From assembly GCA_024679065.1 (NCBI GenBank), contig JAGIQG010000003.1, positions 109,492,001 to 109,556,000 of the forward strand: 64,000 nt of DNA. Direction: 5' to 3'. The notes under the pieces were generated by a model that did not search any database, had not been told where the DNA came from, and saw only the letters and a program-made list of their open reading frames with translations. The position numbers were made by a program, and so were the translations under genes. Numbering within the stretch: position 1 is the stretch's first letter; every line of letters begins with the position of its first letter. Source of the DNA: Sphyrna mokarran. Its lineage: Eukaryota. This document shows, piece after piece, positions 29,901 to 35,900 of the stretch.

Positions 29901-32900
29901 CTGCATTTTTCAGGTTTAAAAGGAGTTTGAAATAAAAAAAGGCCAAAGATAATAAATGGCCATAAGCCAGAACTGAATTGACAGTGTCTGAACCAATATA
30001 AAATGGGTGGCTGGTGTGAGAGAAGAGAGTCATTATGAATTCAATTGGAAATCAAATAGATAGATTTACATTTGCTTTAATTCAAGAGATTGATCAACGT
30101 GAAGGGAACTTTACTGCTCACTGTATTAATTAGTTTGTACATCAACATGTACAGACAAGATGACCATTGGCAATACATCCTGAACACCTATTTTCTTTGC
30201 ATCAAAATTTTATGGAACTGTGAAGGATAGGGAACACAGTTATCAGGTGCAAACATTCATAGTACTGCAGATAAGCAGTTTAATTTTAGAACTAAAAGGT
30301 TTGAGGGATATATTGAGAAATTATGGTTTGGATGGACATGTTCATTGCAAACAATAACATTTCTCTCCAAAAACAAATATTTACTGAATTTTATTGAGGG
30401 AATTAATTTTCAGTTTTGCTAAAATTAGATTAGAGGTTTAGATAGGGTGGACAGTGATAGCCTTTTTCCTAGGATGGAAAAAGCTAGCACGAGGGGACAC
30501 AGCTTTAAATTAAGGGGTGATAGTTATAGGACGGATATCAGAGGCAGGTTCTTTACCCAAAGGGTGGTTCGGGAGTGGAATGCCCTGCCTGCAGCAGTTG
30601 TAGATGCGCCAAGTTTGGTGGCGTTTAAGAGGTTAGTTGATAAGTATATGGAAGAGAAGGGAATGGTTTAGTTTGGAGGGGCATTGCTTTTTATATTGGT
30701 CGGCGCAACATCGAAGGCCGAAGGGCCTGTTCTGTGCTGTAGTGTTTTATGTTCTAAAAGCAACTTTTATTTTAAGAGAAACAGCAAGCATTCAATATTT
30801 GCTTGAAACATGTATAGCAGCATTACAGTTTGATGCAAGAAATGTTAATAATTCTCAGTCAAGCCCTTAGGACAAGGACTAGTAAACTGCTACCAGAAAA
30901 GCTTGGGCATTCTCCTGACAGATGAGAGCTGGAGACAGAAATGCTGGAACATCTTCTAATACAAGAAATATATAGGGAAACCTGCATGGCATACAAGTAG
31001 AAAGAAACATACCAGCAACTTACCTGTAGTTCCTTTTTCAAGGCCTAATCCATAAGCAGAAACAAGACTCGTGTCACCTGTGTGGCCAGGTTCCCCAACT
31101 CGTATCTTGAATGGGCTGCCAGTGATATGACTGCCATTGAATTTGACATCAATAGAATGGACACCATTCTCGTGAGGAATGAAGCGAATGGCATATTTGC
31201 CTGTAACAATGACCATAAAGGTTACACTTTCAGCAATGCACGACACCATTTCCACTCATTAGGTTATTTCTATAAAAAGCATGCACATACCTATGGAAAA
31301 AATCCTTACCTGGCTCAATTTCAGATATATGGGTATCCTCCACTGCCCCTGATGGACTGTGAACTTTGGCATCAATTAAACCCTTAGCACCATTCAGTCT
31401 CACAGCAAAGGATACTGGCTGATTTACTTTTAATCCCGACTCCTGAAGATTGAATAGCAAACACTTGATTGCACATTTAGATTCCACTGAAGCACAAGAA
31501 CAGGACTACACAAAGTTATGCCAGAAGGTATAAAGCTTGCTGTTGCTATAGAGTGCAGTCAATGTTTACCACACTGATCCTGAGATGCCAGGTTTGAGAT
31601 GATTGAAACGGTTAGGATTGTATTCATTGGAGTTTGGAAAAGTGCAGGGGAAATCTCAAACTTAAAATTCTAAAACATTAGCATAGATTTAGTAAAAACA
31701 TTCCTGATGGTGGGCAGTCCAGAACTAGGGATCATTGTTTGAGGATAATGGGTACATCTTTTGGGGCAGAAGTGAGGAGAAATTTCTTCACCCACAAGAT
31801 GGTGAATCTGTGCAATTCACCACAGAAAAATAGTTGAAACCAAAACAAATGTCTGATTTGAAGAATTAGATACATGTCTTGAGAATAAAGGGATCAGCAA
31901 GATCAGAGTATTCATTATCATGGTTGATCATATTCAACTGTGGAGCAGGCTCAAAGGGCAGAATGGCCTGTTCCTAATTTTCTACATATTTCATTGATGG
32001 CTGATCTATATTGGAATAAGATCCTACGGCTGCAAGTTAAAGGTCTAAAGCAGTTGCATTTCTTGTGTATTACTGCAGAAATTAGAGATAAAACATAAGC
32101 ATGTTAGGAGTGAAAAGGAAGGTGACCACCTAAAATAATCTAACATGTAAAAACATCTCTAGTTGTGCTTTTTATAACCAAAAGAAAAACCCTTAGTCTG
32201 CCCTGATAAAGATCATTTCCTCTAGGATCAAAGTTTAGCAGTTCAACTTGGCTGATAAAAAAATGAAGTCCAGACTTGAAATAAAAATGGAGCTTCTGTT
32301 TCCAAGCTTGCGTAGACTTGTGTTTAAAAAGAGGATGTCAATTTAGTCGATAAGCAAGCTGATTAAATCACATTCAGCACAAGGTCTTGTGCATGGATCA
32401 TAGAATCATCAGTAAGCCCGTCAATTTTAAGCAGGTGAAGATGGAAGCAGCCCAACTATATTGGTGCAATTCAGGCATTCAAGTAGCCACCATTGGGCCT
32501 ACCTCAGGAAAAAGGACCTAGGAAGCAAAGGACCCAGGTGGGCAGCAGCTCTCCATTGCATACAGCACCACCAGGAGCAGTGGCAGCTGCTGATAATGCA
32601 CCCACCAGAGGCCTAGGATCACCACAGAACAATAAGCCAAAAAGGTGTGTGAAGTAGAGTTGGGGCAAGTGGAAATGGAATGACTAAGAGGGAATGGCTC
32701 TAATTGCAAACCACCCTTTTACACCCCTTCCCCCCCAAATCCCCCTCAGTGCTAGATTCCTTGAATAGATTTGAAGTTCCAAACATCCTGGGAGGATGAG
32801 GACTGATCAGGGGAAGTTTCGCCATCACTTGGAAACTAATTCAGGACCGTTCCAGTGATTAAATAGGCCCAGCCGCCGTGGTTCCTGCTGTGACAGCCCA

Positions 32901-35900
32901 GATTAAATTCTACCCACTTTAGTCTTTAACAGATTCGCTGCAGGTAGTATTGTGCTGCACAGAATCCACCAGTAATAAACTGCGATTTGAAAGAGCTCAT
33001 GCAATGTCTGGGCATTTATAAGCTTAAAGAACAGCTACTGATTGCAAAATCTAGGCCAATCCACTTGCAACAAAATCTCAATACCAAAAACATCAGAATT
33101 CATATCCAACCTAGTCTGAGATTAAACCATGAATACAAAATTAAAAGATTTAATGAATTTCAACATTACCTGTTACCATTAATTTTTGCTAAAGACCTGA
33201 AGAGGGAGTTCCACCTTGTTTTCATCAAATACCAAACCATTACAAATACAACTTCGGCAACAAGCAGTTTAAGCCATTCACCAAACACTGCCATAATAGT
33301 AGTTCACTTTTAACCACCAATATCAACTGAAGATCAACATAAAGGCTGGACTCTTAAACCTCTTCAACCTTTAACTTGTGGAAACATGCATCTTGCAGGT
33401 ATGCTGTCACAAACCTTTAAATGAGACACAAGAAAAACATCCCAAATTTTTCAAGTGGCAGATGGTGAACTCCTTACACATGCAAAGGCCACACTGATAC
33501 TCATCTCCATTTTTTTTTTCATGCTGCAGAGCTTTGCAACTGATGTTCAATAGGTTAGAGCCAAGAAACCAAAGTTGGACCATGTAGCCCATGGAGAAAA
33601 AAGCACTATGGAGGAAGCATAAACTCAGACCATCTGTGTGACAAGTTGGAAACAGAGGTTCCACATGGTTTGCTGCCCTTCAGGCAAAGTTAAATGGAAG
33701 CAGACCATATCCTTCAATTGTGATTGCAAGTATAGCCAAGTTGCTAAACAAAGCTGATTAATTACGAAATTGCAGAATACTGGCACAATTAAGTTTGATT
33801 TTTTTTAAATGCCAATGGTACTTGGTTTAAATATCCAATTCCTGTCATTAACAACTTAATGACTTAGTTAGCTGTTTAATTCTTAAAGCATTACTTCCTT
33901 TAAATTTGCCCTCTTGGAACAGATTACAAATTTAATCTATTTTATCTTACAAAAGAATTCTCAACCTGTGGCATGTGAAATTTCAAGTGGTAAATTAAGA
34001 TCAAATTGGATAATTTGATCAGAAAGGACACAAGTATCACATTAGCTTAAATTTATATTTTTAAAACTGGTTGTTTAAATGGGAAAGCCATTTAAGTTTT
34101 TAAAAAGCTCTTATTTTCATTTTGTTTTTCCTGCATGATCTAGGGAGCAGCAACTAGCCACTATTAGTACCATCTCTTTGAGAGAGTTTTTTTTTAAAAA
34201 GAGGAAATGCACTTGATGTAGAAACCTCTGCAAACTTCACTTCATCCAAACGCTGCAGCCAAAGTATAACTACAACCCCAACCCAGAACTGGGATCGTGT
34301 GTATTAGAGGAGAATGGTTTATTCTGTTATGGAATTAAAAGGCCAAGATACATAGCACAACTGGATAAATGCAAGCAGCTGCTGAGAACGAGGGGGGTAA
34401 TTAATTCCTAACATTCACTTGCATCTGCATTCTTCTTCCTCTAAGATTTCCACATTCAAGTATCACATCTTTCTAGACAAAATATGGAACTATTTTAAAT
34501 AGAGACATTTGCAAGTGTGGCCTTTGAGTGTGCAGCAGGAAACCCAACCAGTGAGCCGATATTTTCTTATGTCTCACCTGAAGACTAGCAACAGTAAGTC
34601 TGCTTGCATCCTCTGATGAAGCCAAGATGGGAACAACAAAGGGACTGCCAGGGATGTACTCATCGTTGAACTTGATCGACACCTCATAATCACCTGCAAC
34701 AAAAACATATTTAGATCAATGCTCAGTTATAAACATGCAGAATCTACTAAACAACTAAATTTGAGATTTAGTGTTCAACATCAGTAAAACTGTTGCTGCC
34801 TTCCAGGCCACAAATGTATTGCAGATACATCAGTTTGAATAAACAAGATTTTCACATTAAATTATGGGGGGGTTTAACTAGATATTTTACAGATTCAAGT
34901 CTTGGGTGGATTTTAGCTGTCAGGTGTTAATGGAGAAGGGGTTTGTAGAGAGAATGAAATCTAGCTTTCTGAAGACTATTTTAGCAATTCAAGGTCTAGT
35001 GCTGGATTTTAGGCTATCAGAAATTCTTCTGGAAAACTTTGGCCTAAATTTCGTGCTCCTTGCTTGGTGATGGAGAAGGATTTACCCAAATTGGGGAAGC
35101 CAGGAAAAGAACAGACTTAGATCCCAGGTGGGAAGACAATACTTCCATCAGAAACTGCCTTCTGATTGCAGGTGTCCCCATACAACTTAAGGTTCAGTGG
35201 CTGCTGGACCTCCTTCCCCCACCCAGCTCTCCAGTGACATCCCAATTGCCCCTTAGACCTTCACTACCCTCCTCACCCTGGGACCTCTTAAAACTTCAGC
35301 ACTTTGGCTCAAGGTGGTAGCTCACCACCACCTTGATAGCAACTGAGATGCTTGAGCCTTTGTAATGCTGTTCTCACCAAGACCACTATCAAATTGAGGG
35401 GAGCTGTCCTTTGTACTATACACTGTCAGGATGTCTATATACTCACCAGGTTCTTGTGCCACGTATGACACACCACAGGATCCATCCTTCCGATCTTCAA
35501 ATGAAATCTCTGCCCTGCTGGGTCCTTCCACAGCAATAGAAAGGCCACCTGCACCAGCTTCCCGTGTCCAGATATTGAACTCAGCTAGAAGAGCAAACAT
35601 AAATTATAACCAATACTTAAATCCTCAGACAGGTGCCAACATAACTAACCTCTTTTTTGAAAAGCAGAATATTGCAACGTGTGAAAAGACTGACATCATA
35701 ACTTGAGGTCTTCATTTAACTTGTGAATACTTCACATCAAGTTTAGACAATTCCATTTTCCAATGCATCCTGAATATTTAGTTCAATGCCAACAATTCAC
35801 TTATTCATAACACGCAGAGACCCTTGTAGTTGGACGTTTTAAAATGTACAAATAGACTGATCTAAATTATAAAAACCCAATTTTATCTCCAGCTGAGTAG

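Follow-up and report, generated by a model that had tools for sequence, protein, structure and literature searches.

The Q/R site of the filamins is the best-studied case of ADAR recoding outside the nervous system. The mammalian FLNB site (mouse chr14:7,936,048; human chr3:58,156,074) is a target of ADAR2 and is, like the shark site described below, an A at position −2 of a donor reading CAG/GTGAG. A downstream intronic editing complementary sequence (ECS) lies over this donor, as is predicted for the shark gene, and unspliced RNA is edited more than spliced RNA (PMC6161736, PMC10984384; the PMC and bioRxiv records cited here were available in part, and statements on them hold for those parts). 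In mouse, Flnb pre-mRNA is edited for more than 80% versus about 50% or less in spliced RNA; editing depends on ADAR2, Flnc is unedited, and Flnb is modified at the Q/R site, at an S/G site and at intron position +4 (PMC6161736). Without ADAR2, splicing goes up fourfold (PMC10984384). In the mammalian paralog FLNA, the Q2341R site, with its ECS in intron 42, occupies the same codon and donor position as the shark site. When the FLNA ECS is deleted, editing is lost and vascular contraction in mice increases (PMC6166124), and FLNA editing leads to intron retention (PMC7462079). Splicing inhibition, ECS deletion and conservation from birds to mammals have all been described for filamin editing (PMC3866242; PMC6166124; PMC7462079; PMC10984384).

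Outside mammals and birds, lifted-over sites in two Xenopus species are edited up to 60% and 38% in flnb and 57% and 47% in flna. These Q/R sites are the same as the shark one, but Xenopus is a tetrapod and the available part of the source describes no structure (PMC10636886). The reported range of filamin Q/R editing therefore comprises mammals, birds (FLNA) and Xenopus, with FLNB reported from mammals to Xenopus. Editing of GRIA2 has been reported in two sharks; in the accessible text of that study, sharks were tested for NEIL1, GRIA2 and Kv1.1, and the FLNA/FLNB primers and results are those of the bowhead (PMC8659423). The zebrafish brain atlas gives human-conserved sites in five neuronal genes, with no filamin listed in the sections at hand (PMC8096273). 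Filamin recoding occurs in some invertebrates, where the same site is not stated in the part of the source available (bioRxiv 2020.01.19.911685). In the open-access literature, no report was found of filamin editing in cartilaginous fish, nor of an ECS shared by FLNA and FLNB.

The locus compared here lies in a 64,000-nt stretch of Sphyrna mokarran DNA (the window, i.e., the whole stretch that was analyzed), and its features are listed in Table 1. The observation is real, i.e., the ortholog of the known site has an ADAR-type duplex, for which a new lineage, that of a cartilaginous fish, now gives a first if thin support from RNA. With good confidence, the locus is explained by an exon-intron duplex in FLNB pre-mRNA that is likely edited by ADAR at A34579, with slow splicing and a minority R form as the outcome. 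Specialists would welcome this as an extension but hardly be shocked, given that editing of GRIA2 was already reported in sharks. The coordinates make the locus suitable for studying how an ECS placed over a donor balances recoding and splicing.

Table 1. Features of the filamin locus (positions in the window; all on the minus strand).
Feature	Position	Strand	Basis or remark
Coding exon of a filamin, likely FLNB, from the last part of Ig21 into Ig22	34578..34693	−	Translation, spliced joints, PDB matches
Q/R adenosine, CAG to CGG	34579	−	Middle base of last (Gln) codon, donor position −2
Host intron, 3135 nt	31443..34577	−	Joints and sequence
Next exon (ESGLKVNQ..., Ig22)	31310..31442	−	Joints, sequence, PDB match
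Editing stem, 5′ arm	34558..34594	−	Predicted fold, pair table
Editing complementary sequence (ECS)	33404..33441	−	About 1.14 kb into intron; fold, window scan, shuffles, donor comparison
Short upstream stem	34600..34612 with 33383-33398	−	Pair probabilities 0.69-0.86; extends rod
Second stem, 5′ arm, including 34526-34514; candidate editing inducer element	34497..34557	−	Fold; role putative
Second stem, 3′ arm	33457..33512	−	Fold
Candidate second edited A, Thr codon ACT to Ala	34595	−	Unpaired beside stem; suggested by X2 contig branch point
Candidate edited As on ECS strand	33417..33418	−	X2 contigs separated by 2 bases; depth in excess
Alternative 5′ splice site CAG/GTAATG, GT at 33169-33168	33164..33172	−	About 235 nt past ECS; X2 joint
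In-frame stop met when normal donor is skipped	34473..34475	−	34 codons into intron

The genome (2.77 Gb) has three copies of the Q/R exon, i.e., the window gene and those on contigs C335 and C760. The window gene is very probably FLNB, as judged from sequence comparison, and this identity, proposed earlier in a reading based on the window's letters only (the sequence-only reading), is still the best one, although two exons scored higher against FLNA or FLNC. Against the human proteins, its last exon prefers FLNB (115 bits, against 99 and 97), the last exon of C760 is that of FLNC (125 against 106 and 94), and the one of C335 matches FLNA narrowly. Within the window gene, the Ig22 exon prefers FLNB over FLNC, the Ig23 exon scores 119 for FLNA and 112 for FLNB, and the hinge exon points weakly to FLNC. 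FLNB-named proteins are closer to the window gene (77% vs 70 and 64%) and three of the five prefer it, those of Larimichthys and Gracilinanus being the ones that do not. FLNA-named proteins are closer to C335 than to the window gene (87 vs 69%, 82 vs 69%), and C335 shares 87% identity with a filamin-A-like protein of Mustelus versus 75-82% for the five bony-vertebrate FLNA-named proteins with usable cover, as would be expected of a cartilaginous fish. A tree of 18 rows and 396 columns, comprising the three own paralogs and those 15 of the 27 candidates whose cover was 70% or more, leaves these paralogs in an open fork. An RPP14-family gene, the expected filamin neighbor, gave one match as a synteny probe, on another contig, and so did not help to identify the gene.

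The exon 34693-34578 translates to an end reading ...RLTVASLQ, with CTTCAG/GTGAGA at the exon/intron boundary. The assignment of A34579 to the mammalian FLNA/FLNB Ig22 Q-to-R site holds at each of these points, as does the feature by which an FLNB Q/R ADAR site is recognized, i.e., a genomic A in a CAG codon at donor position −2 in Ig22. The A of a Ser codon 7 nt upstream (34586) occupies the place of the mouse S/G site (PMC6161736); this A and A34574, at the place of the mouse intron +4 site, are both present and paired within the stem. At the human M/V position, the shark gene has a genomic G.

When the minus strand was folded from 33370 to 34700, the exon end and donor paired with 33404-33441 in both the MFE and the centroid structure, in line with the partner named by the sequence-only reading. 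The pair table gives 27 Watson–Crick and 8 G-U pairs, mismatches at 34587 and 34580 and a bulge at 33437 for the stem 34594-34558/33404-33441, which reproduces the G-U, mismatch and bulge counts of the sequence-only reading. Predicted pair probabilities are 0.96-1.00 across 34578-34566, and the donor GT at 34577-34576 is covered by the 5′ arm. By predicted folds and shuffles, the locus would therefore have the downstream intronic ECS duplex that characterizes the FLNB Q/R site. The nested helix noticed earlier, 34526-34514 with 33483-33495, is perfect (13 of 13 Watson–Crick pairs) and turned out to be part of a longer intronic stem, 34557-34497/33457-33512, with 40 Watson–Crick and 7 G-U pairs (47 in total) and 14 unpaired positions. 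It is set off from the editing stem by a 15-nt loop on the 3′ side, and the whole rod runs from 34612-34497 against 33383-33512. In the predicted fold, this is a stable adjacent stem beyond an internal loop, which an editing inducer element requires, and it perhaps helps to recruit ADAR. The Q/R sites of GluK2 and GluA2 likewise have a distant ECS (1885 nt for GluK2) and loop-separated flanking stems (PMC5654063), but these genes are unrelated and the inducer role of the shark stem is putative. The predicted long adjacent stem of the shark gene differs from mammalian FLNB, for which Table 1 of PMC5654063, in the part available, gives no conserved adjacent stem.

The complementarity stands out in several comparisons. 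Among 4264 windows of 60 nt on both strands, with the two on the arm's own opposite strand set aside, the best partner of the 5′ arm was 33401-33460 (−36.9 kcal/mol; background mean −14.1, sd 3.5; next best window −28.7). Dinucleotide shuffles of the intron never reached the real duplex (0/30 and 0/40 in two runs). From 20 donor-like sites of the filamin gene, picked automatically, the one at 34577 alone stands out (z −6.1; the other 19 between −2.3 and −3.9). Pairing is stronger on the transcribed strand (−35.3 vs −22.9 kcal/mol on the opposite one), and the strand-specific G-U bias that had been claimed is present, with 8 G-U pairs versus 1 (binomial p 0.02), although the test is soft because the stem was found with G-U allowed. 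The host intron also contains a repeat fragment at 31640-32080, where many unrelated contigs pile up.

In the likely FLNA gene on C335, the exon end likewise has a partner in the intron (2061 nt), at about +1365 to +1410, and there is a nested second stem as well. This duplex is weaker than the one of the window gene: it was equaled in 1/30 and 2/40 shuffles and is missing from the MFE fold, yet reaches about 0.8 in the ensemble. Still, when the complete FLNB and FLNA introns are aligned locally, ECS against ECS comes out best, a result reached by 0/200 shuffles under each of two scorings. From −17 to +16 the two duplexes can be superimposed in one register without gaps, 20 of the 33 positions being identical. 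Twelve positions are changed on a single side, of which 7 keep the pair, 4 break it and 1 is unpaired in both; within these 33 positions there is no double change from one Watson–Crick pair to another, and the sole double change disrupts pairing. Both duplexes deviate from perfect pairing in the same way at −7 (U-G), −3 (C-A), −1 (G-U) and +9 (U-G). In the FLNC intron (458 nt), no duplex exceeds chance (17/40 shuffles as good). The Q codon at the site is kept in all three paralogs. This pattern agrees with mammals, where FLNA and FLNB are edited and Flnc is not (PMC6161736), and the C335 duplex predicts Q/R editing of FLNA in the same species. In all three paralogs, FLNC included, a purine-rich stretch comes after the donor GTGAGA (34572-34577 in the window) and may be left over from a shared arm. 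The C335 intron has at +1825, downstream of its ECS, a donor-like site with 8 of 9 consensus letters.

Because a matching duplex occurs in the likely FLNA, the structure probably predates the split of sharks and bony vertebrates, and it possibly predates the FLNA/FLNB duplication. The origin of the recoding site itself likely goes back to the earliest jawed vertebrates. To the ancestry proposed by the sequence-only reading, the paralog duplex in the same register lends support; a clean compensatory change between the paralogs did not appear. A separate origin of the two duplexes, with an ECS likeness that stems from pairing with similar exon ends, is a serious but lesser possibility that touches the dating only: either ECS has to be complementary to coding and donor sequence that is conserved, no sequence is common to the second stems, and clean covariation and a split of the paralogs in the tree are both lacking. 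The gap-free register over 33 positions with its 20 identical pairings and four shared departures speaks against it, as separate origins would share such departures only through selection on ADAR geometry. The wider scenario, in which one pre-duplication structure served FLNA and FLNB and was lost from FLNC, and in which shark FLNB also acts as an ADAR-linked switch that sends edited transcripts to a donor past the ECS, giving a non-coding form, and has an unreported Thr/Ala site, is likewise put forward tentatively. A site in cartilaginous fish would place filamin Q/R editing at the base of the jawed vertebrates, and an ECS shared by FLNA and FLNB would date one editing structure to before the gene duplication; of all the features, the shared ECS and the second donor most deserve further attention.

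RNA support comes from 4 of the 22 listed assemblies (X2, X19, X20 and X21), which consist of contigs presumed to be RNA. X2 is from the same species as the window, in a sample that differs from the likely genome source; X19 and X20 are from other species, and X21 had no contig placed on the window. An X2 contig of 1207 nt (33419-34625) reads C for T on the plus strand at 34579, i.e., A>G on the transcript, at a depth of 12.4 of 12.4 and 47 letters from the contig end; three other letters in the 1207 differ from the window. The T>C change that had been named as a check was hence found, in one contig of one of the four assemblies, and the A-to-G difference between RNA and DNA is provisional. 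Over the host intron, X2 depth is 5-30 outside repeats, and it is 0 in 4/4 bins inside the upstream intron, which makes unspliced RNA a likelier source of this contig than genomic DNA. In X19, too, the host intron is covered, with an upstream depth of 0-0.6. A G in the intron-containing contig next to spliced contigs that appear unedited resembles the mouse Flnb pattern given above, and the claim that the duplex buries the donor and couples editing to splicing fits this cover of the host intron in X2 and X19 next to a nearly empty upstream intron.

The normal joint is present in X2, X19 and X20, with 8 letters that fit either side; seven letters plus a G are common to the exon end and the intron end, and the shared-letter figure varies between assemblies at another joint. 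As the joints carry genomic letters on both sides and this figure is variable elsewhere, the spliced contigs are read as unedited. Spliced contigs of three species thus appear unedited at 34579, and the R form is absent from them in 3/3 assemblies with the joint, in contigs that drop minor variants. X19 has a single unspliced contig there (depth 4, ending 4 letters away from 34579), with no change at this base among the differences listed (40 of 159 over all assemblies). X19 pieces over the arms differ at 16/245 and 14/243 letters, which is about the divergence of its other intron pieces (28/363, 31/444 and 36/481). The filamin recoding proposed at first gains the G at 34579 in one X2 contig; a recoded protein is predicted.

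Two further places in X2 are candidates for editing. Modelling a branch at 34595 with 31-letter words gives a bin depth of 132.7 versus 132.7 observed. The excess depth at 33417-33418 can be explained by bubble contigs of 62 nt, with values of 27.8 and 28.2 in two bins, and in a further bin the model of contig ends gives 16.2 against 16.1; by this model, the gap at 33417-33418 would be a candidate for editing, or an indel. All three positions are A on the transcript, 34595 and 33418 with a 5′ U, and A33418 faces C34580 as an A-C mismatch. A G instead of A at 34595 or 33418 lowers the predicted energy by about 6 kcal/mol.

Besides the normal donor, the intron has a second one, which is the best consensus match inside it. 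An X2 joint from 33169 to the next exon, seen in one contig, skips 1727 nt at a depth of 26.1, compared to 138.2 for the normal joint. In this form, the exon is 1.4 kb longer and runs into a stop at 34475. An X20 contig matches 33092-33239 around the second donor with 17 differences and 2 gaps; over the ECS, X20 has no contig. Neither a donor beyond the ECS nor a Thr/Ala site like the shark candidate at −16 nt is described for mammalian FLNB in the available parts of the sources.

The edited duplex could here be mainly a switch of splicing or expression, with edited RNA retained or sent to 33169 and little R protein made; this is a less likely but real possibility, and it differs from the favored explanation in outcome, the chemistry being the same. 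It draws on the G being seen in the intron-containing contig only, on the spliced contigs of three assemblies appearing unedited, and on the use of a second donor (26.1 vs 138.2) that leads to an in-frame stop 34 codons into the intron. However, contigs keep the majority letter and spliced mouse Flnb is edited from 2% to 77% depending on the tissue (PMC6161736); a minority R form would therefore be invisible.

The favored explanation, i.e., editing of FLNB pre-mRNA with slow splicing, starts from the complementarity, the one G read, the cover of the intron and the second donor as observed; the enzyme, the order of events, the decay and the R protein are taken by analogy from mouse. The rod would fold co-transcriptionally as the ECS is transcribed. 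An ADAR2-type enzyme would then bind it, perhaps aided by the intronic stem, and edit A34579 and a few neighbors. The buried donor and, subsequently, editing at −2 would slow splicing, and because edited molecules splice slowly, edited RNA would collect in the unspliced pool. Some of it may escape via the stronger 33169 donor into the stop-containing form, which would likely be degraded or held in the nucleus, while a tissue-dependent minority would reach the mRNA as the Q-to-R form in Ig22.

The X2 G could also be a genomic variant of the individual that weakens the donor and is enriched in unspliced RNA for that reason. The X2 sample does differ from the likely genome source and alleles can look like editing, but this very base had been predicted beforehand, all three paralogs retain Q, mammals and Xenopus have editing at the same base, and the two further places that seem variable are also As in or beside the duplex, which makes such a variant improbable. 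Lastly, a complementarity due to chance, or to a repeat-derived inverted pair without function, was dropped as hardly credible, since the window scan, shuffles and donor comparison all oppose it, the ECS region is without the contig pile-up seen at the repeat near 31640-32080, and the paralog match and the G read largely refute it.

In the same genome, PF02137 deaminase matches occur on seven contigs; none of them could be assigned to ADAR2. On one of these, C949, two sets of matches with nearly equal scores lie about 65 kb apart (17.306-17.387 Mb), which reflects either a tandem duplicate or a duplication in the assembly.
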